From Candidatus Micrarchaeota archaeon (lineage in GTDB: Archaea; Micrarchaeota; Micrarchaeia; Micrarchaeales; CABMGC01): a stretch of DNA of 64,000 bases. The first letter of the stretch is position 1. The number at the start of each line of letters is the position of its first letter. Shown piece after piece: positions 1 to 46,387 of this stretch. A program made the position numbers and the translations under genes. Below the pieces are notes generated by a model. It had not been told where the DNA came from. It made no database searches and was given only the letters and a program-made list of their open reading frames with translations. The DNA lies in assembly GCA_021802765.1 (NCBI GenBank), contig JAJZRI010000002.1, positions 27,299-91,298 on the forward strand, given 5' to 3'.

Positions 1-809
1 ATGTCATCACCTACTAAGTCGACCTCAAGTCCGTAAAGCGCAGGATATGCCTTGTCAAGTCTGCAGACCAGATGCACTATGCTTCCTGGTCTTGGACCAT
101 TTCTGGCAATTCCAAAATGTTTCACGTCCTTTATTATTCTTACTCCCACTCCCTCCTTCCTTATCTTGTCGTATTCCAATCTTCCGCTGTCTATTGCTAT
201 GACTGAAGCACCCTTCTTTGCCAAGAAGAGGCTCCATCCTCCCGGTGCAGCTCCTATGTCAATGGCAATCTTAGGCGCTTTAATCCCAAATTCTCTAAAC
301 GCCTCAATTATCTTGAACTCTGCTCTTGACACCTTTTTTTCCTTGTTCTCCCTGAAAGGATCTATGAATCCATGCGGATGAGTTGCAATGTTTATCCTTC
401 CCCAATAGCACTTGCTATCCATTAACACGCAGTAGGCCAGGGTATCTGCAGATTTCAAATCAATGCTGTATCTAAGTCCTTCAAGCTCTTTGCCTATCGC
501 AACTTCTATGTCCTTTGCAGAGTATCCCCTCTTGCAGTTCACGTCAAAGCACTCAAGCCTAAGCGGTTCTTTCTTGTCAAGTCCAAGCCTGTAAAAACCC
601 TTTTTTATCGAATTTATGTATCTTTTCTGGTCTATCTCATATCCTTCTACAAGCGGAAAGTAGCCGTATATGAATGTTGCCCCGTCCAATTCCCTGATCT
701 TCCTGGAACTTATATCGGCTATCATGAGGTTGTGCTGCTCGCTAATTATCCTTGGACTACCCACTTTCCCTAGCTCCTCAAGCGCGCTTTTCCTAAAGCT
801 GTCTGCATA
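1..809 (-). CDS. SAM-dependent RNA methyltransferase, FtsJ/RlmM-like, with N-terminal THUMP-like region (3' end cut by window edge)
   Basis: Own translation of the minus strand. The frame is open from ATG at 807-809 to position 1, and is absent from the ORF track because it runs off the edge. Sequence: MQTALGKARFEELGKVGSPRII...VSRAEFKIIEAFREFGIKAPKIAIDIGAAPGGWSLFLAKKGASVIAIDSG. The 'SRAxxKxxEA' plus 'D[IL]GAAPGGW' SAM motif I is typical of the FtsJ/RlmM family. Confidence 0.6.
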
Positions 810-891
810 CAAAAATAAGTAGATCATGGTAAACTTGCCCTAAAGCGCCTCATGGACTTAATCAGCATTACTAATATGCCTCAAAGGAAAC

Positions 892-900
892 TATTTAAAT
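892..900 (+). promoter_or_regulatory. TATA box (TATTTAAAT) for the 923 gene; spacing implies a leaderless or near-leaderless mRNA
   Basis: TATTTAAAT is centred about 27 nt upstream of ATG 923. The same 9-mer sits about 30 nt upstream of the paralogue at 3055. Confidence 0.5.
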
Positions 901-922
901 AGTGGTGATTTAATATCTATTT

Positions 923-2770
923 ATGCCTTCTTCGAGACAAAAAGCGGTAGCCAAGAACCACAAAGCAAAACCAGGCAATCCTATAGAAAGGGCGCAAACA
1001 TCAATAGAATATCTATCCACATTCTCAATAGCATTGCTGATAATATTAGTAGTGCTCGCCATGATGGGCCTCAACTTCTTCGGAAACAATTCCGTGCAGA
1101 GCCTTGCTTCATCATCATGCTACCTATCAGCAGGGCTTGAGTGTTCTCAGATTGCGATAACAAATAACGGCGTAGCTGCATCTGCTATAATAATATTCAC
1201 GAACAATCTCGGTAGGCAGATAAACTTCCAGAATTCAAACTCGATAGTGGTGACCTCCGGCACAACGCAGAAGTCCTACTATGGCAACTGCTATCCTGCA
1301 AACGCGGTTCCAGGCGCAACAGTGGTATGCAATGTTACCCTCTCAGGCTACTCCCCTTCAATAGGCGAGCAGCTCAGCCCAACATTCCAGCTAAAGTATT
1401 CAGAGTGCATAAGCGGGCAATGCATTGGCTATAATACTTCAGGAAGCGGAATAACGTATGTATCAACAAATATACCTATTTACAAAATCACGCTTTTAAC
1501 AATTCCCTCTGGAGGAACCGTCTCGGTAAACGGCGTCCCATACCTTAGCAACTCCATACTTTACTTCGTAGGTGACATCTCATATTCAATAGATGCACAG
1601 CCGTCATATGGTGGTACATCATTCCAGGGATGGGTAACTCAGGGCGGCGTCATAGCTTCAAATACGCTCAGGTTGTCATCATCAGCCATAGCATCCTCGA
1701 ACGGCATTCTTGAAGCGTCATACATTCCTCCATCTACTTCTACCACTTCATCCACTTCATCCACCACATCCACCACATCCACCACATCAACCTCTACCGG
1801 AACCTCCACATCCACCACATCCACTACAACCGTCGCCGCCACAAACGCAGCTACCAACGCAGCATCAACAGTGACCACCAACGCAGCTACCAACGCAGCA
1901 TCAACAGTGACCACCAACGCAGCTACCAACGCAGCGTCTTCTACTACTGGCTGTTCATCTGGCACTTCGGTCTACGGAAGCGCCAACATAACGCTCGCAA
2001 ACGGCACAACAATCACTGCCAACCGGATAAGCGCAGGTACGATGATACTCTCCTATAATCTAGTCACGCACATGCTGCAACCATCCCTTGTATCTGGAGT
2101 GTATAAGCTCACTGCGAACAATACATACACCTTTAACAACAAGTTGAAGGTGGACGGGAACGAGATAATGCTAATCAACGGCGTGTGGGCCAGAGCCTAC
2201 ACTGCAAAGGTTGGCGATTACCTCTTCGATCCGCTTACCAATGAGCGTGTGACCATAACGGATATCAATGTGACAAACACCGGCGGCAACGTGTACGACC
2301 TGATAGGGTCCCCGGTAAACAACTACATTGCAAACGGATTCCTGATAGACAAGGACACCACCTCAGGAAGTGACAGCTGCATTTCAGTAACCGGAGATTC
2401 AATGATAACACTAGCAAACGGCGCAACCGAGACCGTGAGCAGCGTGCGGCTAGGCACGCTCGTGCTGGGCTATAATCTACTGACAAAGATGCTTGAACCC
2501 ACTGTGGTCATGTCAACAGACTTCCACAACACCACTACAGAATACATAATCAACGGAAACCTGAAGGTCGACGCAGAGGAACAGCTCATAGTAAATGGAA
2601 CAGACGTGCACGCATCAAACCTGAAGATTGGGGATCACCTCTTCAATCCGCTTACAAATCAGAACGTGGTCGTATCCAGTATAAAGATAATCAATGGCAA
2701 CTTCACTCTCTACGACATAAATACTGCGCCTGTTGATGATTACATCGTCAATAGCTATTTGATAACCTAA
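923..2770 (+). CDS. Class III signal peptide (archaeal type IV pilin-like) surface protein: shared N-domain, S/T-rich linker, two C-terminal Hint-like modules
   Basis: N-terminus is a basic leader, then 'AQTSIEYLSTFSIALLIILVVLAMMG' (QxSxEYL plus hydrophobic helix). A B-repeat-like segment reads 'GGTVSVNGVPY...FQGWVTQGG'. The S/T tract covers aa ~270-343. Two ~130-aa modules each begin with Cys (C344, C486). Confidence 0.8.
   Translation: MPSSRQKAVAKNHKAKPGNPIERAQTSIEYLSTFSIALLIILVVLAMMGLNFFGNNSVQSLASSSCYLSAGLECSQIAITNNGVAASAIIIFTNNLGRQINFQNSNSIVVTSGTTQKSYYGNCYPANAVPGATVVCNVTLSGYSPSIGEQLSPTFQLKYSECISGQCIGYNTSGSGITYVSTNIPIYKITLLTIPSGGTVSVNGVPYLSNSILYFVGDISYSIDAQPSYGGTSFQGWVTQGGVIASNTLRLSSSAIASSNGILEASYIPPSTSTTSSTSSTTSTTSTTSTSTGTSTSTTSTTTVAATNAATNAASTVTTNAATNAASTVTTNAATNAASSTTGCSSGTSVYGSANITLANGTTITANRISAGTMILSYNLVTHMLQPSLVSGVYKLTANNTYTFNNKLKVDGNEIMLINGVWARAYTAKVGDYLFDPLTNERVTITDINVTNTGGNVYDLIGSPVNNYIANGFLIDKDTTSGSDSCISVTGDSMITLANGATETVSSVRLGTLVLGYNLLTKMLEPTVVMSTDFHNTTTEYIINGNLKVDAEEQLIVNGTDVHASNLKIGDHLFNPLTNQNVVVSSIKIINGNFTLYDINTAPVDDYIVNSYLIT
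1841..1941 (+). repeat. In-frame 36-bp tandem repeat, about 2.8 copies, encoding (T)TNAATNAASTV
   Basis: Unit accaacgcagctaccaacgcagcatcaacagtgacc is seen at 1841-1876 (1 mismatch), 1877-1912, and partially at 1913-1941. Confidence 0.9.
1952..2353 (+). other. Hint-like module 1 (aa 344-477)
   Basis: Sequence: 'CSSGTSVYGSANITLANGTTI...KVGDYLFDPLTNERV...GNVYDLIGSPVNNYIANGFLIDK'. It resembles intein blocks A and F/G (VYDLxVxxxHNFxANGxxxHN). The block B TxxH position reads D-G-N-E. Confidence 0.55.
2378..2767 (+). other. Hint-like module 2 (aa 486-615)
   Basis: Sequence: 'CISVTGDSMITLANGATET...KIGDHLFNPLTNQNV...FTLYDINTAPVDDYIVNSYLIT*'. It aligns with module 1 over its whole length. Confidence 0.55.
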
Positions 2771-3020
2771 TACATAAAAATTGCAAATGAATCAAAATCA
2801 ATTGCAATTGCACCAATTCGTAATTCCAGTGTTAATTGCAGAAATTCAGACTCGTAGCATAGTAGTGTATGTTAAGCCTGCAATTTTTGAATAATTTTAT
2901 ATGCCGATATAATAATGCCCTAGGAAAATAGCCGCTAAATGACTACATATGTTGAACTTAGGGACAGATATTGGGAATTAGGAAAGAGATAGTTTTCTGA
3001 AAAATTCGATCAAACGAATG

Positions 3021-3029
3021 TATTTAAAT
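3021..3029 (+). promoter_or_regulatory. TATA box (TATTTAAAT) for the 3055 gene
   Basis: Centred about 30 nt upstream of ATG 3055. Confidence 0.5.
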
Positions 3030-3054
3030 CATACTTAACTATTATATTATAACT

Positions 3055-4617
3055 ATGTCCAGAAACATTCGCAAGAAGGAAAAGTTCCAGGCGTCTATAG
3101 AGTATCTCTCAACGTTTTCAATCGCACTTCTCATAATATTAATAATACTTGCAGTGGTTGGCCTTAATCTTTTCGGAAACAATTCCTTGCAGAACCTTGC
3201 CACATCCTCATGTTACTTGTCAGCAGAACTTCAGTGCTCTCAGATAGCCATATCAAACAACGGCATATCTACCTCAGCAATAATAATCTTCACAAATAAT
3301 TTAGGTAGGCAGATAAACTTCCAGAATTCAAACTCGATAGTGGTGACCTCCGGCACAACGCAGAAGTCCTACTATGGCAACTGCTATCCTGCAAACGCGG
3401 TTCCGGGCGCAACAGTGGTATGCAATGTTACCCTCTCAGGCTACTCCCCTTCAATAGGCGAGCAGCTCAGCCCAACATTCCAGCTAAAGTATTCAGAGTG
3501 CATAAGCGGGCAATGCATTGGCTATAATACTTCAGGAAGTGGGATAACCTATGTGGCCCCAAAGATTATTCTCTATCGTGTAAGGCTTCTTACAAGTCCT
3601 GACGGAGGGACGGTATCGGTAAACGGCGTCCCATACCTTAGCAACTCCATACTTTACTTCGTAGGAGACATATCCTATTCAATAGATGCGCAGTCATCTT
3701 ATGGCGGCACGGTATTTCAGGGCTGGATAACACAGGGTGGGGTCGTCGCTTCAAACACACTCAGGTTGTCCTCATCAGCCATAGCATCCTCAAACGGCAC
3801 TCTTGAAGCATCATACATCCCTCCAACCACATCCACTACTTCTACAACCACAAGTACGACTACCTCAACGTCTTCCACAACCACATCCACCACCTCTCCA
3901 ACTACCTCTTCAACCACCACCTCCCCAACCACCTCCCCAACCACCTCCCCAACCACTTCCCCAACCACTTTCCCAACCACTTCCCCAACCACCTCTCCAA
4001 CCACCTCTCCAACCACCTCCCCAACCACTTCCCCAACCACCAGTGCAACCACCTCCATTTCTTCTACAACTTCCATTACAACCACATCCACTTCCGCTAC
4101 AACCACTTCCATTTCATATGACGTATACTTTGTTGGAAGTCCTTCTGCCGGAGGAACTCCTACTGATGCTTCGGGCCAGACAACCTGTGTTGAATCTGCC
4201 GGCGGTGTTTGCGGAATGTATGCAAATACAAATTCTGGATATACCTTCTCACATTGGACCTGCTCCGGTGGGGCGTGCGCCTCCGCCGGTTACTGCGGCA
4301 CATGTTCCATCACGTCTGCCACAATCTACGGGTCATTAACCTTGACTGCATATTACACATCATCTGGAGGCACAACGACTGTTAACGGATGCAGCAGTTC
4401 CGGAGTCATATATGGAACCAACCAATGCAATGGCGCTTACTATGGTTATTGCTCAAGTCTCGGAACATCATACATATATGAGGGCGGCGCAGCAAATGAC
4501 GGTTGCACCGGATCCACACCCAACTTATGCCACACGTGTGGCGCAACTGATGATCTTGGAAACGTGGAAGGAACTTCAAATGATGATGGCGATAGCTGCG
4601 ACTCCTGGTCCTGTTGA
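3055..4617 (+). CDS. Class III signal peptide (pilin-like) surface protein, paralogue of 923..2770, with (TTSP)n linker and Cys-rich C-terminal module
   Basis: Signal region 'KKEKFQASIEYLSTFSIALLIILIILAVVG'. The N-terminal ~265 aa are collinear with the 923 gene. The C-terminus 'GYTFSHWTCSGGACASAGYCGTCSITSATIYGSLTLTAYY' is B-repeat-like, followed by a Cys/Gly/Asp-rich tail. Confidence 0.8.
   Translation: MSRNIRKKEKFQASIEYLSTFSIALLIILIILAVVGLNLFGNNSLQNLATSSCYLSAELQCSQIAISNNGISTSAIIIFTNNLGRQINFQNSNSIVVTSGTTQKSYYGNCYPANAVPGATVVCNVTLSGYSPSIGEQLSPTFQLKYSECISGQCIGYNTSGSGITYVAPKIILYRVRLLTSPDGGTVSVNGVPYLSNSILYFVGDISYSIDAQSSYGGTVFQGWITQGGVVASNTLRLSSSAIASSNGTLEASYIPPTTSTTSTTTSTTTSTSSTTTSTTSPTTSSTTTSPTTSPTTSPTTSPTTFPTTSPTTSPTTSPTTSPTTSPTTSATTSISSTTSITTTSTSATTTSISYDVYFVGSPSAGGTPTDASGQTTCVESAGGVCGMYANTNSGYTFSHWTCSGGACASAGYCGTCSITSATIYGSLTLTAYYTSSGGTTTVNGCSSSGVIYGTNQCNGAYYGYCSSLGTSYIYEGGAANDGCTGSTPNLCHTCGATDDLGNVEGTSNDDGDSCDSWSC
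3925..4040 (+). repeat. In-frame 12-bp tandem repeat (ccaaccacYtcY, about 10 units) encoding (PTTS)n
   Basis: Units read directly at 3925, 3937, 3949, 3961, 3973, 3985, 3997, 4009 and 4021, with a partial unit at 4033. Confidence 0.9.
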
Positions 4618-4636
4618 TAATTAAATAGGGTATAAT

Positions 4637-5494
4637 ATGGATGAAAAGATAAAACTGCTCATAACTGTATTTTCCATAATACTTGTAATTGTAGTAGTCC
4701 TTTTCTTATATTATGCCGATAATGCCACTTCAAAATTAAATGAATCAAATTACTCCATTTCAAATGTCTCAATACACGCAATGCATTCCATAGGCAGCAA
4801 ACCTAATTTCTCAATAGCTTACCTTGAGTATTCGACATATCCTGTATCGACCCAAACCGGCTATTCAAAAAATAATGGCTCATATTATACTACCTACTCT
4901 AAATACATCTATACTAATTATAGTGGATCATTGGTTCTCAACATCGCGTATCTTATCTCGCCTTATTACAATGCGTCAAGGGTATTAACTGGCATGATTG
5001 AAAATACGCTAAGTGGTGATTACATAAGCTGTTCACGCATGGATGCGTACGTCCTAGTAAATTGTACAAACACCCCTCCAAATCTCCCCTATCCCGGCCT
5101 AGAAGGTACTTTCCTCAATTTCCTAAATTTATCATTGCAAAATAGATACTATTACGTCAACGGTACAGTTCATACTTTTGCAAATCTTTCTTCATCCGAA
5201 ACTACTATCTCAAATTCCAGTTTCATTGGATATCCATGCCAGCTTAGCAGATCGCACATATTTGATGCACAATACCCAAGTATAAACGGAACTTCATATA
5301 GATGCATTTCATCTCAATATGGGGTTCCATTGCTCATATTCATAGACCTGCACGATCCGTATTACAACAATGTCGGCGCAGACATAATACTCAATGTATC
5401 TGCAATTTACATAAACCCAAAAGTTAATGAATCGTACTTTAAGATAGTTACAAACAGGACAGAACTATTCCCTCAAAGTATGATCAGTAAATAG
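4637..5494 (+). CDS. Membrane-anchored (N-terminal TM) extracellular protein rich in N-glycosylation sequons; function unknown
   Basis: TM segment 'LLITVFSIILVIVVVLFLYY'. I count 17 N-x-S/T sequons in 285 aa. It starts 19 nt after the preceding stop, so it is probably co-transcribed. Confidence 0.6.
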   Translation: MDEKIKLLITVFSIILVIVVVLFLYYADNATSKLNESNYSISNVSIHAMHSIGSKPNFSIAYLEYSTYPVSTQTGYSKNNGSYYTTYSKYIYTNYSGSLVLNIAYLISPYYNASRVLTGMIENTLSGDYISCSRMDAYVLVNCTNTPPNLPYPGLEGTFLNFLNLSLQNRYYYVNGTVHTFANLSSSETTISNSSFIGYPCQLSRSHIFDAQYPSINGTSYRCISSQYGVPLLIFIDLHDPYYNNVGADIILNVSAIYINPKVNESYFKIVTNRTELFPQSMISK

Positions 5495-5505
5495 GCGTAT
5501 ATTGT

Positions 5506-6204
5506 ATGCCAAGAAACCATCGAAAGGCAAAATCGCCAAACAAACGCAATGCAGTTGGCAAAACGATAGCCTTAGGCAAAAAAATATCAACGGCCGCGTT
5601 TATAATTATATTGGTTGTTGTTCTGTATTACGCTTCATCTGGCGCTGTTCGTAAGTTTAGCCCTACTACAACATCGCCAAAATTCAACAACGTAACACTT
5701 AACATAACTATGAAAGTGGTTAATGACCAGGCCCTGGCCGTTCCGTTCAATTATTACTGGGCTCTTGGCAATTATACTAAAAATATTGTTGCAACACCAG
5801 ATGGAAATTATTCCTACCTAGTAACCATTACATCAATTGGTAATTGGACTACTTTTAAAGGCCTAATGGACCCAAGGAATACCACTCCAGAGCCAAAAAA
5901 TGGTTCCGGAACATTCATTGAAACCTATTCCTTGCAGGTGCCAGGAAACCTAAACCTATCACGTCCGACAACTGGATTTATCGGCACATATAATTTTAAC
6001 GGGTCATTGCAAAACATTCTTGCAGGCATGCCACCAAGCAACATATTTAACTGGCCCGGAGCGTATTTTAGTACCGGCTTTGAGTATGTGAATTTGATTA
6101 ATGTCAACGAGACGTTCATGTATGGCAATCAGACATACAAGTACCATTATACAAATATTAACGGTCAAATAAATGAGACGCACAGTGGAGACATTTTAAC
6201 ATAG
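5506..6204 (+). CDS. Membrane-anchored (N-terminal TM) extracellular protein, sequon-rich; function unknown
   Basis: Basic N-terminus plus 'ISTAAFIIILVVVLYYA' TM. I count 12 N-x-S/T sequons. It starts 11 nt after the preceding stop. Confidence 0.6.
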   Translation: MPRNHRKAKSPNKRNAVGKTIALGKKISTAAFIIILVVVLYYASSGAVRKFSPTTTSPKFNNVTLNITMKVVNDQALAVPFNYYWALGNYTKNIVATPDGNYSYLVTITSIGNWTTFKGLMDPRNTTPEPKNGSGTFIETYSLQVPGNLNLSRPTTGFIGTYNFNGSLQNILAGMPPSNIFNWPGAYFSTGFEYVNLINVNETFMYGNQTYKYHYTNINGQINETHSGDILT

Positions 6205-6220
6205 CTTTATTGCAAAAATG

Positions 6221-6364
6221 TAGGAAGTTGACAAATAGTCACAAAGCGAATAGAACTTTGTTAAGTAACGAATATGCAAAATTACTTTTGAGACGAAAGT
6301 CTTTTAGAATTTTCAAATGTATGAAATAAAATAAGGCCAATTGAGATCAAATGTCAACTTCCTA
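6221..6364. mobile_element. MITE-like non-autonomous element (144 bp) with 13-bp perfect terminal inverted repeats and 6-bp flanking direct repeat
   Basis: TAGGAAGTTGACA at 6221-6233 and TGTCAACTTCCTA at 6352-6364. AAAATG lies immediately outside both ends (6215-6220 and 6365-6370). There is no ORF inside. Confidence 0.5.
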
Positions 6365-6458
6365 AAAATGGCATAGCGCTATCCTTTTAAACTTAACTTG
6401 CCTATCATTATTGTGAATTCATACTCATTATTATAAACCAAGATGGCCAGGTGAGAAT

Positions 6459-6779
6459 ATGTCGGAATCGAATGCTATAGGACACGTCCAAGATGCTGAG
6501 GCAAAGGCAAAAAAACTTGTTGCAGACGCTGAAAAGAGGAAGGCAGAGAAGATCCAGAAGGCCAATGAAAGAGCAAGGCAGATTGTTGATGAGGCAGAGG
6601 CAAGGGCAAAGCCGCTTCGCGACGACGTCATAAAGAGCGCCACAGAGCAGGCCAATGCAGAACGCGAAAAGAGTCTCTTCGAAGCAAGCGCTATGGCAAA
6701 GAAGGTCCAGAAGGAGGAGCTTGGAAAAAACAGGATAAAAGGCATTGCGGAGAAGGTTGTAAGGCAGATATTTAGTTGA
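6459..6779 (+). CDS. atpH: A-type ATP synthase subunit H
   Basis: 106-aa Ala/Glu/Lys-rich coiled-coil protein, first gene of the atpHIKECFABD order. An AGGTGA Shine-Dalgarno sequence lies 5 nt upstream. Confidence 0.75.
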   Translation: MSESNAIGHVQDAEAKAKKLVADAEKRKAEKIQKANERARQIVDEAEARAKPLRDDVIKSATEQANAEREKSLFEASAMAKKVQKEELGKNRIKGIAEKVVRQIFS

Positions 6780-6802
6780 TTTATTTGTTCCATACAGAGC
6801 CG

Positions 6803-8638
6803 ATGCAAAAAGTGAGGATAGTCTCACTAGAGCGGGACAAACCTAAGGTTGTTGCTGCGCTGCACATGCTCGGCGCCATTGACCTGCGGAAGAGCAAGCT
6901 TGAGATATCTGATGACAGATCCGATTCACGCTCTGGTGAACTCTCCGATTATCTGATAAAGGTTACTGGCGCTCTGCAGATGCTAAGTCCACAGCAGATA
7001 AAAACCGAGAAGCACATGTCCGTGGATCACATTATAAAGGAAGTTTCCAAGGCAAAGGTGCTAAACGAAATATATTCCCTTGCAAATGAACGCAAGCTAA
7101 TAGAGGACGACCAGAAAGCCATAGATTATGCACAGCACATAGCGAATGCTCTACACGGAGTCAGGATGGACTTCGCCAGGACGAAGAGCGATTATCTCTC
7201 ATACAGGGCGTTCGAGTCCGATTCAAGGAGTGCAAAGCAGGTCGCAAGCGCCATAAGCAGATCAAAATCCGAAGGCGTAGAGCTGAACATCTCCAAATCA
7301 GGCAAGAACCAGGAGCTAATCCTTCTCGTGGCCGACAAGAAGGCAAGTGTTGATGATCTTCTCAAGGGAATAAAGCTCAATGAACTCGACCTCTCTGCAA
7401 AATACCTTGAGGGAAGCCCCATAGAGGTACTTAAGACACTATCTTCAAGGAGAAAGACTAACGATAGGCGTCTTTCAGTAATAGCTGCAAGGCTCGCGGA
7501 CATAAGCAAGAGTAGCTATTCGCGGCTATCAAACCTCAGGGAGATGCTAGAGATAGAGCTCTCAAGGTCAGAGGTAAGCGGCGGCTTCAAGAGAACAGAC
7601 AACACCTTCGTAGTGGAGGGATGGGTCCAGAAGGAGCGCGTTGAAGAGCTCAAAGAAAGAATATCCAACGTTACGCACAAAAAGGCCTACATCGAGGAGC
7701 TTGAAGGCGATGAGCTTGCTCCTACAGTCACCAAGAGACCCAAGTTCTTACAGCCTTTTGATTACATGGTAAGCTTCTATTCTGTCCAGAGGAGCGATGA
7801 GATAGATCCTACATGGATCTTCATACTCCTGTTCCCTATATTCTACGGCCTCATGGTCACCGACGTCGGTTACGGATTTGCATCGCTGCTGCTTGCAACG
7901 TACATAACGAAGAAGACCGATCCTGACGGCCTGATGTACAATGCAGCCAAGATATGGCAGCTTAATTCCTTCGCCGCAATGTTCTTCGGCTTCCTATCCA
8001 ACCAGTACTTCGGATTCCAGCTTGGGTATTCGACGCCATTTAGCTTCGATTGGCTCAAGAACACACCAGAGATAATAGCAATATCCGTACTATTCGGCGT
8101 ATTGCAGGTGGTGATAGGTCTTGTCATAGGGATAATAAACAGCTACAACCACGGTCACAAGAAGATGGCTTATGCAAGATTCGCCTCAATACTCGTTGTT
8201 CTTCTGGGAACAGTTGCAGTATCAGGAGCATTTTTCGGCGCGTTCAACCCAACAATTACGGATATATCCGCAGCAATCGCTGTAGTATCGCTTATACTTA
8301 CAATAGTCTTCAGCGGAAGCGAAGCCACCGAAGTTACCAACCTGATAACACATCCTCTAAGCTACGCAAGGCTTATGGGGTTCGGCCTTGGAAGCGTCAT
8401 AATTGCGTTTCTTATAGACATGGCATTCACGCCACATATGAGCAGTGGCATTATCGTCTTCACGCTTTACCTAATCATATTTATAGCTTTACACTTCCTT
8501 AATATGGTGCTGTCGATATTCGAGGGGATCGTTCAGGGAATACGGCTCAATTTCGTCGAGTTCTTCTCGAAGTTCTATATAGGAAATGGGGTAAAATTCA
8601 AGCCCTTTAGCTATAGGAGGATTTATACTAAAGAATAA
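6803..8638 (+). CDS. atpI: A-type ATP synthase subunit I (a-subunit homologue)
   Basis: Hydrophilic N-terminal half plus multi-TM C-terminal half, positioned between atpH and atpK. ATG 6803 is preferred over the track's TTG at 6776. Confidence 0.85.
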   Translation: MQKVRIVSLERDKPKVVAALHMLGAIDLRKSKLEISDDRSDSRSGELSDYLIKVTGALQMLSPQQIKTEKHMSVDHIIKEVSKAKVLNEIYSLANERKLIEDDQKAIDYAQHIANALHGVRMDFARTKSDYLSYRAFESDSRSAKQVASAISRSKSEGVELNISKSGKNQELILLVADKKASVDDLLKGIKLNELDLSAKYLEGSPIEVLKTLSSRRKTNDRRLSVIAARLADISKSSYSRLSNLREMLEIELSRSEVSGGFKRTDNTFVVEGWVQKERVEELKERISNVTHKKAYIEELEGDELAPTVTKRPKFLQPFDYMVSFYSVQRSDEIDPTWIFILLFPIFYGLMVTDVGYGFASLLLATYITKKTDPDGLMYNAAKIWQLNSFAAMFFGFLSNQYFGFQLGYSTPFSFDWLKNTPEIIAISVLFGVLQVVIGLVIGIINSYNHGHKKMAYARFASILVVLLGTVAVSGAFFGAFNPTITDISAAIAVVSLILTIVFSGSEATEVTNLITHPLSYARLMGFGLGSVIIAFLIDMAFTPHMSSGIIVFTLYLIIFIALHFLNMVLSIFEGIVQGIRLNFVEFFSKFYIGNGVKFKPFSYRRIYTKE

Positions 8639-9533: not shown

Positions 9534-10604
9534 TTGAAGGCAGGTTATGTTGCTGCAATGCATTACGGCTACTCCAGCGCTAGGGTCAAGGCCATGGAGA
9601 GCAGGCTCATAACCAACAAGATCATGCAGGAAATAATGAATGCCAAGGACGCCAGCAGCATACTCTCCATACTCTTTCAGGGAGACTATAAGAAGGAGCT
9701 TGAGGAGTTTGGCGGCCTGGAGATAAAGGGGGAGCTTATAGACTTCGCGCTAAGCAAGAATCTTGCCAAGAGCGTAGCCAAGCTCGTGCAGATCTCTCCA
9801 ACAACCGAAAGGAAACTTGTGCGCTCGATAGTGGGCAAATGGGATCTATACAACGTCAAGATTGCTATAGAGGCTAAAGACAGAAAGTCGAGCTATGATG
9901 CCATTGCAAGATACCTAATAGACTATGGCATGTATGATGCGGCATTCGTAAGGGACGTGATGCGCGAGGATTCCATAGAAGGGATGTTCAACAAGTTCAT
10001 GATAAATTCCCCGTACAGGGATATCCTCAAGGAGTCGCTGGAATCGTACAAGAAGAGCAAGAACGCCGTCGATGCCGTAGCTGCAATAGACAAGAACTAC
10101 TACAAGGCGCTGGGAGACGTCATAATAGGCTTAAGGGTCATAGACAACAGCTCGGCCAGGATAATAAAGATGGACATAGACATGAAGAACCTGCTTCTCA
10201 TGGTAAAGGCAAAGAGGGCGGGATTAAAGTTCTCAGAGATAAGCGGCAGCATAATTGGCAGCGGCAACATGCCTCCAAATGAGCTCGAGCAGATATACAA
10301 CGGCTCAAAGGACATAGAGTCGATGGTGATGCAGGCAAAGCTCTACGACATGAAAGCCGCAGTTGACGTCTACAAGTCGCAGAAGCTCAAGCACCTGCTC
10401 GTATTTGAGATAGGATTAAGGAATGCGATATTCAACAAGAGCATTAGCCTGCTCAATCACAGCATACTCTCATTCGGCGCGATACTCGCGTACGCCTACA
10501 TGAAGGAGATAGAGATATTCACTCTTAGGGTGCTGATAAACAGCAAGATGTATGGTCTTAGCAAGGAGGAGACCTCAAGGCTGATAGTATGGAAGAACGC
10601 TTAG
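9534..10604 (+). CDS. atpC: A-type ATP synthase subunit C (d-subunit homologue)
   Basis: 'YGYSSARVKAMESRLI' is the typical subunit C N-terminus. The start is uncertain: TTG 9534 or ATG 9558. Confidence 0.85.
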   Translation: MKAGYVAAMHYGYSSARVKAMESRLITNKIMQEIMNAKDASSILSILFQGDYKKELEEFGGLEIKGELIDFALSKNLAKSVAKLVQISPTTERKLVRSIVGKWDLYNVKIAIEAKDRKSSYDAIARYLIDYGMYDAAFVRDVMREDSIEGMFNKFMINSPYRDILKESLESYKKSKNAVDAVAAIDKNYYKALGDVIIGLRVIDNSSARIIKMDIDMKNLLLMVKAKRAGLKFSEISGSIIGSGNMPPNELEQIYNGSKDIESMVMQAKLYDMKAAVDVYKSQKLKHLLVFEIGLRNAIFNKSISLLNHSILSFGAILAYAYMKEIEIFTLRVLINSKMYGLSKEETSRLIVWKNA

Positions 10605-10936
10605 ACAAGGGATACAAGATAGCATACGTGGGCAACAACCTGCTTAGCGTGGGCTTCAAGATCGCCGGGATAACCGAGTCATACGTAGCATCAGACTCTG
10701 CGCAGGCGGAGAGCAGGATGAAGGAGCTCACTACAAGAAGCGACATCGGGATAATAATTATCACATCATCCGTAAGGAAGCTGATAAAGGACAGGAGGCT
10801 CTCCGAGGCAATATCCTCGAGCCTTCTACCTCTTGTGATGGAGATTCCGGAGCTCAACGAGCAGGTGCTTGAGGAGGACACTCTCAGGAATCTGATAATG
10901 CGCGCGATAGGAATAGACATAACAAAGAACGTATGA
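10589..10936 (+). CDS. atpF: A-type ATP synthase subunit F
   Basis: 115 aa, 'KIAYVGNNLLSVGFKIAGI...IGIIIITSSV', plus operon position. Confidence 0.85.
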   Translation: MEERLDKGYKIAYVGNNLLSVGFKIAGITESYVASDSAQAESRMKELTTRSDIGIIIITSSVRKLIKDRRLSEAISSSLLPLVMEIPELNEQVLEEDTLRNLIMRAIGIDITKNV

Positions 10937-10970
10937 TCAGATGAATATTATTGATATTTAAGTGGTTGAT

Positions 10971-12743
10971 ATGGGAAATATTGAAAGAATCTCCGGGCCT
11001 CTTGTCGTAGCAAACGGCATGACGGGCACCAAGATGTATGACGTAGTGAAGGTAGGCGACGCGAAGCTTATAGGAGAGATAATCCAGCTCAAGAAGGATC
11101 GCGCCGTGATCCAGGTGTATGAGGATACGACCGGGCTCAAGCCAGGAGAGGCCGTAGTATCAACAGGAGAGCCCCTCTCAGTCGAGCTCGGTCCTGGCGT
11201 CCTTGGAAACATATACGACGGAATCCAAAGGCCTCTTGAGATACTCGAGGCTAAGAGCGGCGCATTCATCGGGAAGGGATTGACGGCTGATGCGGTAAGC
11301 AGATCAAAGAAATGGAAATTCGTCGCTGAGAAAGGGGTCAAGAACGGAGCGAATGTGAAGCAGGGTCAGATAATAGGGCACGTGCAGGAGACCGAATTCC
11401 TAAAGCACTACATAATGGTTCCTGCGGGAGTCGACGGAAAGATAAGCGGGTTAAAGGACGGCACTTTCAAGGTGGACGATAGGATTGCAACGGTTGAGAA
11501 GGGGGGAAAGAAGACAGAGATCACAATGCTCCAAAAGAGGTCTGTTAGGAGGGCCAATCCATTCACAAGGAAGTTCAGGACAGAGGAGCCTTTGATAACC
11601 GGCCAAAGAGTCATAGACATGCTCTTCCCGATAGCAAAGGGAGGAACCGCTGCAGCTCCTGGGCCATTCGGAAGCGGAAAGACTGTAATACAGCACCAGC
11701 TTGCGAAATGGTCGGATGCGGACATAATAATCTACGTCGGATGCGGTGAGCGAGGAAACGAGATGACCGAAGTCCTTGAGGAGTTCCCTCACCTTAAGGA
11801 TCCTAAGACCGGAAGGCCGCTAATAGAGAGGACAACGCTAATAGCAAATACAAGCAACATGCCTGTGGCCGCAAGAGAGGCCAGTATATATACCGGAATA
11901 ACCATGGCCGAGTACTTCAGGGACATGGGATACAGCGTCGCAATACTTGCTGATTCAACTTCAAGATGGGCCGAGGCAATGAGAGAGATATCTGCAAGGC
12001 TCGAGGAGATGCCTGGAGAGGAAGGATATCCTGCTTATCTGCCAAAGAGGCTTGCAGAATATTATGAGCGTAGCGGCAAGGTTGAATCGCTCGGAGGGAA
12101 GGTCGGATCAATAACAATAGTGGGGGCGGTCTCTCCTGCAGGAGGAGACCTCTCAGAGCCCGTGTCGCAGGGAACTTTAAGAGTCGTGAAGACCTTCTGG
12201 TCCCTTGACGCGTCTCTTGCATACGCAAGGCACTTCCCTTCAATAAACTGGCTCACGAGCTACTCGCTCTACGGCCCTGACCTTGAACCATGGTACGTGA
12301 AGAACTACGGTGAGGAGTTCATCTCCAACAAGGACGAGGTAATGAAGATACTGCAGAAGGAGTCAGAGCTCAAGGACATAGTGCAGCTTGTAGGTGCCGA
12401 GGCTCTTCCGGACGAGGAACGACTTGTACTGGAGATAGGGAGGATGCTCAGGGAGGATTTCCTAAGGCAATCCGCATTCGACGAGATAGATGCATACACA
12501 AGCATGAAGAAACAGATATTCATGATCTCAACGATACTTCACTTCAGGAAGATGGCTCAGGAGGCGATAAAGGTCGGAGTGAACGTTGACAAGATAGGCA
12601 AGCTAAAAGTACGGGAGAGCATCTCAAGAATGAAGGAGACCAAGGAGGATGACGTTGCAAGGGCAGACGCAAGGATAAAGTCGGAGATAGATTCCGAGTT
12701 CAATGCTCTGCTAAAGGAGTACAGGCAGGGTGAAGTGGAGTAG
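10971..12743 (+). CDS. atpA: A-type ATP synthase catalytic subunit A
   Basis: '[14 protein letters not shown]' N-terminus, Walker A 'GPFGSGKTV', and '[13 protein letters not shown]'. There is no intein insertion. ATG 10971 is preferred over GTG 10962. Confidence 0.97.
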
Positions 12744-21377: not shown

Positions 21378-23117
21378 CTAGGTGCTGTTCGTCGGGTTTC
21401 TAGTAATGTAATAGAGCGAGTAGTTGTTTATTCCGTTAGGTGATCTTTCGCTAACTATGAGTCGTGGGTTGTACTTTTGCAGGCCGCTATTGCATGTTGA
21501 GTTTCTAAATTCAGGAGTAGTGCACCAGTATCCTTGGTCAAAGACGAAGCAGCTAAATTTGCTTGCAAATGCCGAAGAATTTATTGTATTGGTCTGCAAA
21601 TAACTTATCTCTATTGCACTTCTGTTCTGTATCACCCAGACATCCGGATCAAACGTGTACACAAGGCAATTGTTAGGCACGAGATGGGCATTCTGGTTTA
21701 CAAAGTTCATATATCCTAGGGCCATTGCTTGCTGTGGCATCCTTGAAGGGCTAACTGTTATTATACTTATTGCATTGTAGAATGGTAGCACCGCAAAAAT
21801 AACAATTAGTGCAATAAATGCCACGTCCTGTATCAGCCTTCTCGCGCCGATGTTCTTTTTCTTATTAAAGTATGCTATGTGGCTTACGAATTCTTCACTG
21901 ATGCTTGCAATGCCAAATCCAGCAAACAGTGCTATTGGTGGGTACAATATGAGCATGAACCTGACATCCACCCCGAAATTTACCGATCCGGCATAAAATG
22001 CATCATAAAGAAGATGAAATGCAACTATCCAAAGTGCGAGCAGAACAAAAGGAAGGCCTTTCTTTGTTCCTTTGTAGAGCATTAGCCCTGCTCCGATGAG
22101 CGCTGCGATAGTGGTGATTATTGAGAAATAAGTTGGATAATAACCCAATACCGTGAATGCGCCAAGGAAGAAATTCACATTTGAAGCGATATTGCACTTT
22201 AGGTTGCTTATAGAAAAGGTGGCATTAGATTGCGCGCCACAAATATATCCGTTGCCATAGTCAGGACTTCTTACTTGGCCAATGACATAGTAAATTTCAG
22301 GAAGTATTATCAAGAAGAAGAGCAGGATTATCAACAGGTCCTTTATGTTATCACTTGCCAATAGCTTTCTAATGCCTTTTTTTAGTCCATTGGTGACCAG
22401 AGAGCTATAAGTTATCACCACGACTATTACCGGAATAAGCAGCATAGCTTCTGCCCTTGAATACACTGCTATACCTAGTGAGAAGAGCATTAATGCAAGT
22501 GACGTGCTGCTTTTGTCCCTATTATAAATTACATATGCGTTGAAAGCAAGCAGTGCCGAAGCCATTAAGAGCATGTTTGGTATCGCCTGTGTTCTGGACC
22601 ATATGAATAATTCTGGAATCAATGCAAAGACTGTTGCGGCTGCTAATCCTGCGCGCTTTCCAAGTAGATACGTACCAAGAGTAAACACCAACACTATTGA
22701 CAATGCGCCCATCATCAAGCTCATCACATATGCTGTCTGTGAGCTTATGCCGAAAAGGAAAAAGAAGATTGCAAGATAGAATGATATTTCAACCGGGTCA
22801 TGATAAATCTGGTATCCTTCGCACCAGTTAAGGTATGCGGTTCCGTACTGGCACCACAGCGCATTTCCGGTATGCATTATGCTTAGGGCTATCTCCTGGT
22901 ATATGGTTTCATCAAAGTAAAGTTGCTCGACGGGGTGCACGTAAAGGGAAGAAAAAACAACGAAGAAGAGCACTACCAGCAGTGCAAGTGATATGTACGC
23001 TTTTGTAGTGTTTTCAAGAAGTCTCTTTACCAGGGTCTTTCTCAGCATAAGGGCACTTACTACGACTCCTAAAAGCAGTGCTACATATGCAATGGTGAAA
23101 AGATACCCTATAATCAT
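21378..23117 (-). CDS. GT-C fold membrane glycosyltransferase (PMT/ArnT-like, GT39/GT83-type)
   Basis: 579 aa with many TM helices. The acidic 'LYFDETIYQE' motif sits in the first extracytoplasmic loop, and there is a soluble C-terminal domain. No WWDYG motif is present, so it is not AglB. Confidence 0.6.
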   Translation of the reverse strand: MIIGYLFTIAYVALLLGVVVSALMLRKTLVKRLLENTTKAYISLALLVVLFFVVFSSLYVHPVEQLYFDETIYQEIALSIMHTGNALWCQYGTAYLNWCEGYQIYHDPVEISFYLAIFFFLFGISSQTAYVMSLMMGALSIVLVFTLGTYLLGKRAGLAAATVFALIPELFIWSRTQAIPNMLLMASALLAFNAYVIYNRDKSSTSLALMLFSLGIAVYSRAEAMLLIPVIVVVITYSSLVTNGLKKGIRKLLASDNIKDLLIILLFFLIILPEIYYVIGQVRSPDYGNGYICGAQSNATFSISNLKCNIASNVNFFLGAFTVLGYYPTYFSIITTIAALIGAGLMLYKGTKKGLPFVLLALWIVAFHLLYDAFYAGSVNFGVDVRFMLILYPPIALFAGFGIASISEEFVSHIAYFNKKKNIGARRLIQDVAFIALIVIFAVLPFYNAISIITVSPSRMPQQAMALGYMNFVNQNAHLVPNNCLVYTFDPDVWVIQNRSAIEISYLQTNTINSSAFASKFSCFVFDQGYWCTTPEFRNSTCNSGLQKYNPRLIVSERSPNGINNYSLYYITRNPTNST

Positions 23118-43810: not shown

Positions 43811-46387
43811 ATGCTTGCAGGATCAGCAAAATCACAATCAGCGCTTGAATTCCTTAGCGGATACATATGGGCATTCATCATAATCGCAATAATCTTAAGT
43901 GTGATCTATTATCTTCTTGCAATCCCTAGCGCTATAACTTCAACAAGCTGCAGCTTGACCAGCGGAGTTGACTGCAAAGGTCTAATAGTAGGGTCGAAAG
44001 CAGGTACCACCCAATTCGATGCCGTAATAGTAAACGCACAGCAATATGATTTTGTGGGGCCGACAAGCCTCATATTCAATGTTTCTGGATATGGCAATGT
44101 TACAGCAATATGCTCTCCAGCCAACGTAATATCTGGCGGCACGACAATATGCAGCGGATCAATCAGTGCCAACATCGTGCAATCATCTATAATAAGAGGC
44201 CTAATAAAGGTGACTACTGGCGTCTGTCTGTCCGGTAATGTGAATAAGTGCACTGCCATTGCCCCTACAACTTATATTGGCAACTTTTCATCGCAGGTTG
44301 GCGCTTATACAAACAACAATCTACCAGTAAATTTGGCACTTTACGTGGCTTCTTCTTCAACATCTGCAGGTACTCAGGATCTTATCACAGCAAACATAAA
44401 AATATTCAGCCTGCCAGCGTCAAGCTCGGGAATTACATTCAGTACGAACGTTCCTTCCTACGTTACCATCTCTCCGGAATACGTATTGACAAATTCAAAT
44501 GGGAATGCAACTGCGGAGTTCACTGCAACTGCAGGTGGCACTTACAATATAATTGCCACTTATGGCAATTATGTTGCATCTAATACAATAATCGTATCAA
44601 GTCCGACTACTACGGTGTCTCAATGCTATTCCCTAACATTGGCAGATACCTCTGGCGGGGCGAGTGTATCTGCATCTCCATCCAATTCCGCAGGATGTTC
44701 CCCTGGAAGCTACTCTGCAGGGGCCGTTATAACTCTAACTGCAACGCCTTCTTCAGGAAATGCATTCACCAGCTGGTCAGGTACATATCAGAGCACTTCG
44801 AATCCGTGGTCCTACTCAATGCCATCCAGTGCTGCAACTGAAACTGCAAATTATAACATCTGCTATCAGCTCACGCTTACTGATGGATCAGGAGGTTCAA
44901 GTGTGGTTGCTTCCCCATCAAACTCAGCAGGATGCTCTTCGGGAAGTTACTTCTCTGGTACTGCAATAACTCTTACAGCAACTCCTGCTTCAGGATACAT
45001 CTTCTCCAGCTGGACTGGAACGTCATCCTCATCATCAAATCCATGGTCGTATTCAATGCCTGCCAGCACCGCAACTGAGACTGCAAACTACGCGCAGTGC
45101 TACCAACTCACGCTTACTGATGGATCAGGAGGTTCAAGTGTGGTTGCTTCCCCATCAAACTCAGCAGGATGCTCTTCGGGAAGTTACTTCTCTGGTACTG
45201 CAATAACTCTTACAGCAACTCCTGCTTCAGGATACATCTTCTCCAGCTGGACTGGAACGTCATCCTCATCATCAAATCCATGGTCGTATTCAATGCCTGC
45301 CAGCACCGCAACTGAGACTGCAAACTACGCGCAGTGCTACCAACTCACACTTACTGATGGAACAGGAGGTTCAAGTGTGTCCGCCTCCCCATCAAACTCC
45401 ATAGGCTGCTCTTCAGGATATTATATCTCAGGAGCGGCAGTAACTCTTACAGCAACTCCTGCTTCAGGATACATCTTCTCCAGCTGGACTGGAACGTCAT
45501 CCTCATCATCAAATCCATGGTCGTATTCAATGCCTGCCAGCACCGCAACAGAGACTGCAAACTACGCCTCTTCATGTACTGGAACAAATACACTTACTGT
45601 TACTAGTTATCTATCTCTAACAGCATCAGCGTCGACTACTGTTAGCTATACTATGTATGGTGGCGGCGGTGGTGGAAACTACGCTGGATATGGAACAAGC
45701 AGTACGGGAGGAAGCTACAGTACAGGAAGTTTTGCTATAACTAGTGGTCAAACCTTAACAGTATATGCTGGTGGCGGCGGAGGAGGTGCAAGTAGTGATG
45801 AGGGTGGTGGAGGTGGCGGCGGAGGCAGCGGATATTATGGTGGAGGTGGCGGCGCAGGATGCGGATATCCTGCAGGTGGCGGAGGCGGAGGTTCGTCAGC
45901 TGTTTTGGTCAGCGGGTCGGTAACAGCATGCGCAAATGGTGGTACTGGTGCAAGTGATACTACTTATGGCGCGTATGGCGGCTCCGGAGCAACTTGCTCT
46001 GCTGGTGGCTCAGGAGGAACAGGGGGCGGAAACTGCGGCTCATATCCTGGATATGCCGGAGGTCTGAATTTTGGCGGTAATGGCAATCCTGCAAGCTGGA
46101 CTGCTGGTTACGGCGGTTCCGGCGGAGGCGGAGGTACTGGCGGTTCAAGTTGCGGCGGAGGCGGTGGCGGAGGATACGGAGCAGGCGGAGGAGGCGGATC
46201 ATTTTGTAACGGCGGAGGCGCAGGTGGCAGCAGCGGTGGTAATGGAGGTAACAACGGCGGCGGGTATGGTGGCGGTGTAGGTGGAGATAGCGGCACAGGA
46301 GGTGCAAGTACAACTACTTCTGGTTCAGGTGGAGGGAATGGCGGCAGTGTAACTCTTAGCTGGCCAGGATCATCATGCCCTATCTAA
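43811..46387 (+). CDS. Large class III signal peptide (pilin-like) surface protein: N-domain, four B-repeat domains, Gly-dominated C-terminal domain
   Basis: Signal region 'AKSQSALEFLSGYIWAFIIIAIILSVIYYLLA'. Four 79-aa repeats read 'CYQLTLTDGSGGSSV.ASPSNS.GCSSGSY.SG.A.TLTATPASGYIFSSWTGT...TETANY' (divergent InlB B-repeat pattern). The last ~270 aa are runs of G with S/A/Y/T/C. Confidence 0.8.
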   Translation: MLAGSAKSQSALEFLSGYIWAFIIIAIILSVIYYLLAIPSAITSTSCSLTSGVDCKGLIVGSKAGTTQFDAVIVNAQQYDFVGPTSLIFNVSGYGNVTAICSPANVISGGTTICSGSISANIVQSSIIRGLIKVTTGVCLSGNVNKCTAIAPTTYIGNFSSQVGAYTNNNLPVNLALYVASSSTSAGTQDLITANIKIFSLPASSSGITFSTNVPSYVTISPEYVLTNSNGNATAEFTATAGGTYNIIATYGNYVASNTIIVSSPTTTVSQCYSLTLADTSGGASVSASPSNSAGCSPGSYSAGAVITLTATPSSGNAFTSWSGTYQSTSNPWSYSMPSSAATETANYNICYQLTLTDGSGGSSVVASPSNSAGCSSGSYFSGTAITLTATPASGYIFSSWTGTSSSSSNPWSYSMPASTATETANYAQCYQLTLTDGSGGSSVVASPSNSAGCSSGSYFSGTAITLTATPASGYIFSSWTGTSSSSSNPWSYSMPASTATETANYAQCYQLTLTDGTGGSSVSASPSNSIGCSSGYYISGAAVTLTATPASGYIFSSWTGTSSSSSNPWSYSMPASTATETANYASSCTGTNTLTVTSYLSLTASASTTVSYTMYGGGGGGNYAGYGTSSTGGSYSTGSFAITSGQTLTVYAGGGGGGASSDEGGGGGGGGSGYYGGGGGAGCGYPAGGGGGGSSAVLVSGSVTACANGGTGASDTTYGAYGGSGATCSAGGSGGTGGGNCGSYPGYAGGLNFGGNGNPASWTAGYGGSGGGGGTGGSSCGGGGGGGYGAGGGGGSFCNGGGAGGSSGGNGGNNGGGYGGGVGGDSGTGGASTTTSGSGGGNGGSVTLSWPGSSCPI
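44624..45571 (+). repeat. Four in-frame 237-bp tandem repeats (units at 44624, 44861, 45098, 45335)
   Basis: All unit starts are in frame with ATG 43811. By direct comparison, units 2 and 3 differ at 2 of 237 nt. Unit 4 shares its 3' half identically. Confidence 0.9.

Follow-up and report, generated by a model that had tools for sequence, protein, structure and literature searches.

How ultrasmall archaea of the DPANN lineages find and hold a host cell is largely unexplained. A locus near the start of a 64,000-nucleotide stretch of DNA from one of them, a Candidatus Micrarchaeota archaeon (contig JAJZRI010000002.1; the whole stretch is called the window here), raises the question of what two neighboring proteins with the same N-terminal head and entirely different C-terminal tips, together with two small membrane proteins encoded behind them, might do at the surface of such a cell. 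The organism is an acidophilic archaeon that needs a host cell. Names of several related metagenome-assembled genomes (MAGs; FK, FK_Sedi) match acid-mine-drainage sampling sites, and pili-like contacts between acid-mine Micrarchaeota and Thermoplasmatales hosts are on record (PMC5864196). The original prediction, made from the sequence, had described pilin-like paralogues with swapped C-terminal cassettes and had taken adhesion and cell–cell contact as the conservative reading. The answer that we favor, with somewhat more confidence than doubt, is that the locus encodes a stalked surface contact apparatus or adhesin, in which one paralogue carries an exchangeable specificity module with two co-inherited glycoproteins and the other a conserved, probably self-processing pair of Hint domains.

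Checking of the open reading frames (ORFs) placed the four genes where they had been predicted, all on the + strand, as are all features of the locus given below. Gene 1 (923-2770; product p1, 615 amino acids, aa) encodes a class III-like signal/anchor, a six-Cys head, a linker of Ser/Thr (S/T)-rich and TNAA repeats, and two C-terminal Hint domains. Gene 2 (3055-4617; p2, 520 aa) repeats this head and continues with a TTSP-repeat linker, a divergent B-repeat, and an 8-Cys knob that has a Cys as its last residue. The predicted spacing of 19 nt from gene 2 to p3 and 11 nt from p3 to p4 was verified; p3 (4637-5494, 285 aa) and p4 (5506-6204, 232 aa) each carry a membrane anchor at the N-terminus, p3 with 17 N-x-S/T sequons and 4 conserved Cys, p4 with 12 sequons and no Cys. 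Residues 9-268 of p1 and 1-255 of p2 are 83% identical over 260 aa (BLASTP, E 1e-143), in agreement with the roughly 265 collinear residues claimed for the shared module, and beyond the heads BLASTP finds no significant similarity, so the claimed total divergence after the linker also stands. Both linkers are S/T(P)-rich tandem repeats as described: a 36-nt unit repeated 2.7 times (1839-1935) in the gene 1 linker (1733-1966, aa 271-348), and a 12-nt TTSP unit repeated 13.8 times (3889-4056) in that of gene 2. The repeat number in gene 1 varies among strains, P0001 being shorter by 12 aa (one unit).

We compared the locus with its counterparts in other assemblies, which are given L numbers here. 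The gene 2 linker and tail, p3, and p4 (3838-6204, roughly 2.4 kb) form a polymorphic cassette. L001, L003, L022, L023, and L024 carry the window's version (haplotype I) at about 88-90% nucleotide identity. In L019, L020, and L021, the cassette is replaced by a second type (haplotype II) in a syntenic setting, which comprises the end of a twin-Hint gene (30/32 residues identical to the window), the intergenic region, a 592-aa gene 2, a 300-aa gene, a 227-aa gene, and the ATPase genes atpH through atpD. Between the window and L019, amino acid identity is 91% in the gene 2 head and 81-100% in the ATPase genes, whereas it falls to 55% in the gene 2 tail, 37% in p3, and 44-47% in p4; synonymous divergence (dS) across the tail, p3, and p4 is saturated, and nonsynonymous divergence (dN) is 0.41-0.68. 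The flanks are much closer at the DNA level. L019 is 96.4% identical to L001 up to codon ~261 of gene 2 and 99.1% identical to L022 from 20 nt before the last gene's stop, and the atpH/atpI genes of L019 and L022 have a dS of 0.03-0.04 with 99-100% amino acid identity. The ~2.4 kb between these flanks gives no DNA alignment between L019 and L001/L022, which represent the same haplotype because their overlap is 100% identical. Both breakpoints coincide with module boundaries, namely, the head/linker junction of gene 2 and the stop codon of the last gene. These comparisons indicate that the cassette was swapped between near-identical strains by homologous recombination, one breakpoint lying in the low-complexity linker and the other at the 3′ terminus of the last gene.

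The two haplotypes are homologous, with Cys patterns and several motif blocks kept between them. They are thus best described as old, diverged alleles of the same modules that appear to have been exchanged by recombination, rather than as unrelated cassettes. Within haplotype I, the tail, p3, and p4 have dN/dS values of 0.11-0.15 (p3 0.11, p4 0.15) and a dS equal to that of the flanks, which points to real genes under purifying selection. The two downstream genes belong with the locus, being conserved in it and co-varying with the tail. Cassette swapping across related genomes is observed for the gene 2 tail with p3 and p4 (37-55% identity between flanks of 96-99%) but not for gene 1, and the predicted layout of constant head, flexible linker, and variable tail accordingly describes gene 2 and the two small genes only. 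Scanning metagenomes with the gene 2 head yielded no more than two loci, both distant.

Could such a divergent segment arise without any functional unit behind it? On this alternative, the four products are ordinary fast-evolving surface proteins, the divergent stretch stems from one neutral introgression or from a chimera made in assembly or binning, and the paralogues are N-anchored glycoproteins (S-layer-associated or matrix) rather than pilins. The recovery of two haplotypes only, a head model with no pilin match, and the commonness in Micrarchaeota of such N-termini with assorted adhesive domains, two more of which lie in the window, are all in keeping with it. Each haplotype, however, was recovered independently in three or more assemblies, with contig overlaps that are 100% identical within each set (L019/L020/L021 and L001/L022/L023; L024 has an identical p4 protein), and contigs run through both junctions, which makes a chimera unlikely. 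The placement of the breakpoints at module boundaries and the recurrence of the same gene arrangement in distant genomes, with gaps of about 5-31 nt before the small genes, also speak against this explanation, and we consider it improbable.

The exchanged tail of gene 2 begins, after the linker, with an InlB-type B-repeat-like module (4138-4356, aa 362-434). A hidden Markov model (HMM) built independently from 18 Pfam-positive repeats of other proteins matches it over its full length with a weak score of 15.9 bits and matches the type-II allele with 24.4 bits. The predicted B-repeat-like module is thus recognized end to end by this HMM, but the Pfam model PF18998 (Flg_new_2) itself has no match in the gene 2 tail at E ≤ 0.5. 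The predicted Cys/Gly/Asp-rich module follows as an 86-residue knob (4357-4614, aa 435-520) in which 8 Cys are conserved and which has an LCHxCG motif and ends in W-x-C; a profile search against the PDB found no relative of it. The L-C-H-x-C-G motif (4527-4544, aa 491-496) is invariant in both haplotypes and in L005, and its CxxC plus His resembles redox-active or metal-binding motifs. L005 itself (9974-12433), from a more distant genome, has a single 819-aa gene after the FtsJ gene, with a head 54% identical to that of the window, three B-repeats, and the same Cys knob at 56% identity; its contig ends there.

Recounting of the sequons gave 17 in p3 and 12 in p4, as predicted, against 5.2 and 4.6 expected from composition, an excess of about threefold. 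Each protein has one N-terminal hydrophobic anchor, also as predicted, and only 3/57 ORFs of the window are both N-anchored and sequon-rich by the same criteria. Both proteins are predicted to be extracytoplasmic, outward-facing, and glycosylated, and they are probably co-transcribed with gene 2. The surface protein of the cultivated Micrarchaeon A_DKE is glycosylated, and its N-glycosylation genes are expressed. Homologues are few: one cluster at 93% identity for p3 among 5.8 billion proteins and four clusters for p4 in the protein cluster search. The S-layer protein of Micrarchaeum harzensis was considered as a match and set aside, being a different protein of 101 kDa.

A variable C-terminus exchanged with downstream genes, between strains that share the N-terminal body, is the formal likeness to polymorphic loci that had been drawn from the sequence, and gene 2 bears it out. 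The same pattern characterizes CdiA-CT/CdiI, Rhs, and MafB, in which a conserved N-terminal body switches sharply to a variable C-terminus exchanged with the downstream gene(s). A toxin/immunity-type system, with the gene 2 knob as a delivered effector, as in CdiA-CT/CdiI or Rhs tips, and p3/p4 as cognate membrane immunity proteins, would account for the constant N-terminal part, the sharp breakpoint, and the exchange with adjoining downstream genes in near-identical backgrounds; in addition, the nearest canonical relatives of the gene 1 Hint domains are "polymorphic toxin-type HINT" proteins. Yet searches of the tail with Pfam, NCBIfam, PADLOC, PHROGs, and a profile against the PDB detected no domain of a toxin, nuclease, deaminase, or pore former. 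Scanning of all four proteins gave one PADLOC match, on a low-complexity linker and not meaningful, and only sub-threshold PHROGs matches (E about 0.08) to families of unknown function, in line with the earlier statement that toxin or immunity function had no evidence for it. The Hint domains belong to gene 1, where they form the very C-terminus and have no cargo behind them to release. Moreover, the cassettes are homologous alleles, with p3/p4 motif cores common to both haplotypes, and these proteins are predicted to face outward as extracytoplasmic glycoproteins, unlike the downstream products of the bacterial systems. Orphan tip or immunity modules are also missing, and the ATPase operon starts directly after the locus. 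We therefore rate a toxin/immunity system as very unlikely.

The gene 1 tail differs from that of gene 2 in both content and history. It consists of two Hint domains (41.5% mutual identity), the first at 1967-2350 (aa 349-476), with Ser349 at the nucleophile position, Asp411-x-x-Glu414, and Asp476 replacing the penultimate His, and the second at 2384-2767 (aa 488-615), with Ser488 and Asp550-x-x-Glu553. A direct Pfam/NCBIfam scan of the four proteins gave only a sub-threshold Intein_splicing match (E 0.17). A 12-sequence Hint profile, by contrast, matches the Tetrahymena bacterial intein-like (BIL) domain BIL2 (6y75) at E 3e-9 and also matches the Clostridium thermocellum BIL 2lwy and the DnaX mini-intein 7cfv; 7/12 of its members weakly match Pfam PT-HINT. 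An AlphaFold2 (AF2) model of the domain (predicted local distance difference test, pLDDT, 82.5) has as its top Foldseek matches BIL2 (6tmm, E 7e-9), DnaB mini-inteins, 2lwy, and the Hedgehog Hint domain (1at0), with template modeling (TM) scores of 0.73-0.84 across the BIL/Hint matches (2lwy: TM 0.84, root-mean-square deviation 1.7 Å). On the strength of these profile and fold matches, the call of two Hint-like modules is correct.

The residues at the expected active site follow a distinct pattern. Ser349 and Ser488 align with catalytic position 1, the site of the C1A mutation in 6y75. In block B, an invariant Asp-x-x-Glu (D411/E414, D550/E553) stands in place of Thr-x-x-His, and in place of the terminal His-Asn, Hint 1 ends in FLIDKD and Hint 2 in YLIT, the last Hint strand, followed directly by the stop codon. 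Since the terminal Asn is absent, splicing is excluded and the domains are not inteins; at most, cleavage at the N-terminal side would be possible. An exhaustive profile search returned 6006 cluster representatives at E ≤ 1e-3. Tandem copies (2-4) are present in most of the best 150 of these, and half reach to within 15 residues of the C-terminus. A residue census of the 312 Hint domains from these 150 nearest representatives shows Cys at position 1 in 204/312 and Ser in 39/312, and two tightly correlated alternatives: Cys/Thr/His (~150 domains) and Ser (or Cys)/Asp/Glu with a terminal Asp or Thr (39 domains). The members of the Asp/Glu set that have names are Micrarchaeota, and one named canonical relative is a "polymorphic toxin-type HINT" protein from Omnitrophota. 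We found no paper linking Micrarchaeota with Hint domains in the literature searched.

Replacement of the block-B Thr and His together with the terminal His-Asn raises the possibility that the twin Hint domains have lost catalysis and act at the tip in binding or as structural elements, gene 1 then being a second adhesin with a different, conserved ligand. The strong conservation of the tail is what a binding surface would show: the gene 1 Hint tail is 68-78% identical across genomes compared with 44-55% for the head, and between the window and L007 the twin-Hint tails are 68-77% identical and the heads 44%. This also overturns the idea of a variable tail for gene 1. On the other hand, members of this clade are otherwise 30-50% identical, and position 1 (Ser or Cys), Asp66, and Glu69 belong to the handful of columns that (nearly) never vary. 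This argues for a maintained site rather than decay, and the replacements occur together as a set, the pattern of a maintained active site. We regard loss of catalysis as possible but less than likely.

Two side observations concern Cys residues near these tips. Most Hint paralogues have a Cys 1-5 residues ahead of the predicted Hint cleavage site. The last residue of the non-Hint paralogues (window gene 2 at 4612-4614, L005, P0009, L007 gene A, and L004) is Cys, in the contexts WSC, WAC, VDC, DTC, and IIC. A near-terminal Cys would consequently be exposed in both paralogue types after cleavage.

The heads of the two paralogues are kept alike within a genome. They lie at 980-1732 in gene 1 (aa 20-270) and 3055-3819 in gene 2 (aa 1-255), and six Cys are invariant across the aligned head family. 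An apparent B-repeat in the head came from a circular HMM, one built in part on the queries themselves; it was not recovered with an independent HMM and is not claimed here. A 240-nt tract at 1211-1450 in gene 1 is 99% identical to 3304-3543 in gene 2, against a background of ~77% between the window paralogues. Between the two L001 paralogues, identity over this tract is only 83%, and the gene 2 copy in the window clusters with orthologues of gene 1, which points to a recent conversion with gene 1 as donor and gene 2 as recipient. Paralogue heads are 87-88% identical within a genome (window; L007) and 44% identical between those genomes, a pattern that indicates homogenization of both heads by gene conversion. 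The "constant head" of the original prediction is therefore constant within a genome but is partly a product of concerted evolution and diverges between genomes.

The start of each head resembles a class III signal peptide. The DUF361 class III motif is QXSXEXXXL, in which cleavage by EppA leaves the Q at +1 (PMC2910488). The corresponding sequence is ERA|QTSIEYL in p1 (Q+1 at 995-997) and KF|QASIEYL in p2 (F|QASIEYL at 3088-3108). In the longer stretches RA|QTSIEYLST and KF|QASIEYLST, Q+1, S+3, and E+5 match the motif, position +9 is T rather than L, and an L stands at +7. A hydrophobic stretch follows each site (hydropathy maxima 2.6-2.9), and the AF2 head model (14-sequence alignment, pLDDT 80) consists of a 30-residue N-terminal helix (model residues 5-34; about aa 24-53 of p1) followed by two beta-sandwich domains. 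Hydropathy and model thus agree on a hydrophobic alpha-helix of the ~20-30 residues expected right after a class III cleavage site. What makes the proteins "pilin-like" is this N-terminal motif and the modeled helix; no pilin fold match, no match to curated models, and, among the scanned ORFs, no assembly genes at the locus were found to accompany them.

Taken together, these features suggest how the favored contact apparatus would work. Both paralogues would be exported and anchored through the type-IV-pilin-like N-terminus, either seated in the membrane or built into a pilus-like fiber, and each would present a disulfide-stabilized beta-sandwich head, an S/T-rich and probably glycosylated stalk, and a distal tip. 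The gene 2 tip (B-repeat plus 8-Cys knob) would act with p3 and p4 as one specificity module, of which there are at least two old homologous haplotypes. Cassette exchange would presumably alter which partner surface, on a host or a sister cell, is recognized, or would allow evasion of a virus that uses the module as a receptor. Gene 1 would keep a conserved tip of two Hint domains of the Micrarchaeota clade, in which Cys, Thr-x-x-His, and His have changed together to Ser, Asp-x-x-Glu, and Asp or Thr. These domains most likely would still carry out an N-to-O acyl shift at Ser349 and Ser488, and so would either cleave at the end of the stalk or transfer the protein to another nucleophile. Such chemistry would plausibly be carboxylate-assisted and suited to very low pH.

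Several observations weigh against this account. The residue at −1 of class III signals is usually Gly or Ala; here, it is Ala in p1 and Phe in p2 and, family-wide, A, F, I, S, L, D, E, or G, and this variability makes class III cleavage uncertain. Foldseek of the head model against the PDB found no archaeal pilin or archaellin, only weak tandem-Ig matches (TM about 0.2). Class III models of Pfam and NCBIfam matched neither the proteins nor their isolated N-termini, a negative that has little power because the window's textbook-like MEYLMTYGWAIL N-terminus is also unmatched. No prepilin peptidase (A24), assembly ATPase, or TadC was found among the scanned ORFs of the window; about a quarter of the window's ORFs were tested against Pfam. 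The Hint domains lack the block-B His, a residue considered central for the acyl shift, and could be noncatalytic binding modules. The two cassette haplotypes amount to a single inferred exchange, and the co-variation of tail, p3, and p4 could result from physical linkage alone. Finally, p3 and p4 have no detectable homology to the small proteins of other Hint loci by single-sequence or profile hhalign comparison, and their likeness to those genes is therefore positional only; an apparent relationship (phmmer E 0.002-0.02 in a tiny database) was rejected at an hhalign probability of <7%.

A bolder joint interpretation, for which we see only a slim chance, takes the cassette as a self-contained lock-and-key recognition set and the gene 1 Ser/Asp-x-x-Glu Hint pair as an acid-adapted autoprocessing enzyme. 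The disulfide knob of gene 2 would bind the co-inherited p3/p4, on sister cells or as a host co-receptor complex, and recombination in the linker would switch a strain's contact specificity in one step. In the Hint pair, carboxylates would replace histidine, as they do in the Ser-Glu-Asp sedolisin proteases, and the enzyme would work at acid-mine-drainage pH to cleave or covalently transfer the adhesin. Were the recognition set real, it would be an archaeal, toxin-free analogue of kin- or partner-recognition loci.

The favored contact apparatus resembles several known systems and departs from each of them. Modular type IV pilins and pilus-tip adhesins, exemplified by Streptococcus sanguinis PilB (PMC8179133), share with it a class III-type N-terminus with Glu at +5, a hydrophobic helix, and a structural module that has a functional one grafted onto its C-terminal side, and they too are presumed to serve adhesion. 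Archaeal type IV pilus loci are likewise predicted to encode large class III-signal "adhesin or minor pilin" proteins (PMC4858521). Unlike in the modular pilins, the present heads have no recognizable pilin fold, the stalk is a long S/T repeat, and assembly genes are missing from the locus; its tips are Hint domains or a Cys knob, and pilins with such tips were not found in the literature searched. In the Ups pili of Sulfolobales (PMC7064770), an archaeal type IV pilin-type protein also has a variable region, which there sets the partner cells, and glycosylated surface proteins participate in recognition. The Ups variable region, however, lies inside a small major pilin whose ligand is S-layer glycan, whereas here it would be a distal knob on a large stalked protein accompanied by two co-inherited predicted glycoproteins.

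The Hint pair, in turn, is close to BIL and pretoxin HINT domains (PF07591, 2lwy, and Tetrahymena BUBL BIL2 6y75/6tmm) in fold (TM 0.73-0.84) and profile (E 3e-9). It shares with them variable, secreted, nonconserved carrier proteins, the lack of a splicing-competent C-terminus, and frequent tandem copies. BILs are located in hypervariable regions, and autocleavage has been described for them (review PMC7765530). It differs from them in having Ser for Cys 1, Asp-x-x-Glu for Thr-x-x-His, and Asp or Thr for the penultimate His, and in its position at the extreme C-terminus, without cargo, on an archaeal class III-anchored carrier. The locus thus joins known kinds of system, namely, modular pilin-like adhesins, BIL/PT-HINT domains, and C-terminal cassette exchange, in an unreported form and lineage.

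These results offer concrete, testable candidates for host contact in DPANN archaea: in otherwise near-identical strains, the tip of a stalked, pilin-like protein and its two partner glycoproteins are different, as would be expected if they determined specificity or served as a virus receptor under selection. Exchange of a C-terminal cassette together with the genes behind it is usually described for bacterial toxin/immunity systems, and the locus provides a case outside them. It also defines a Micrarchaeota Hint clade with Ser/Asp/Glu for Cys/Thr/His. If active, these domains would extend Hint chemistry to very low pH and might serve as acid-triggered self-cleaving tags.

Related heads occur elsewhere in the phylum. 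Gene 1 homologues are metagenomic, and those with names are likewise Candidatus Micrarchaeota. A scan of species-representative genomes with a 7-sequence head alignment gave 13 loci, all Micrarchaeota except one labeled Marsarchaeota. Proteins of 354-1072 aa combine the head with B-repeats (PF18998), beta-propeller-like repeats, Gly-rich modules, Cys-rich ends, or one or two Hint modules, and L007 has a tandem pair, a Cys-ended paralogue followed by a twin-Hint paralogue. Four loci (L007, L016, L017, and L018) have a Hint-ending gene followed, at 5-22 nt, by 2-3 genes for single-anchor proteins with 3.3-6 sequons per 100 aa. These small proteins (L007 5184-7637, L016 2068-3733, L017 7410-8879, and L018 10371-12616) form two recurring N-anchored, sequon-rich families, one of 240-312 aa, often with a Q/N/E-rich cytoplasmic N-terminus, and the other of 186-243 aa; neither matched a Pfam family. 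A gene for a PMT_2 glycosyltransferase lies close by in 3/4 of these other Hint loci (L007 7650-9458, L017 9014-10669, and L018 13807-15522), and such enzymes could O-glycosylate the S/T linkers. The window's own PMT_2 gene (GT-C, similar to dolichyl phosphate mannose [Dol-P-Man] protein mannosyltransferases) is at 21378-23117 on the − strand, 15 kb from the locus.

The sole connection seen with possible pilus assembly genes comes from a third head paralogue (P0005-like, 356-404 aa, short tail), which lies two genes downstream of a T2SSE-type ATPase gene at L002 6629-11071 and L004 5986-10088. In both loci, this paralogue adjoins a ribosomal protein cluster, and L004 and the syntenic locus L003 belong to one MAG. 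Elsewhere in the window, two further proteins have class III-like N-termini (SQSALEFL... or QQAAMEYLMTYGWAIL...): an 858-aa protein with four PF18998 B-repeats and a Big_1 domain (43811-46387, +) and a 296-aa LamG/ConA-like protein (61259-62149, +). The genome appears to be rich in adhesin-like proteins with pilin-type anchors.

The surroundings of the locus comprise an FtsJ-type methyltransferase gene upstream on the − strand and the A-type ATPase operon, which starts downstream at 6459. A TATA-box-like TATTTAAAT stands at 892-900, 22 nt ahead of the gene 1 ATG, and again at 3021-3029, 25 nt ahead of that of gene 2; the window holds 5 copies against 0.87 expected. The predicted promoter motif is thus common to both genes, but its spacing from the two ATGs is similar rather than identical. 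This element is a putative promoter of genes 1 and 2, and its distance from gene 1 would fit a leaderless transcript. An Rfam scan of window positions 1-7000 found nothing. The spacer between p4 and atpH contains a 144-nt insertion (6221-6364) with perfect 13-nt terminal inverted repeats (TAGGAAGTTGACA), which has no Rfam match and no second copy within the window. Its predicted fold has a z-score of −4.1, and it is missing from the same site in L019 and L022, which gives it the look of a miniature inverted-repeat transposable element (MITE).

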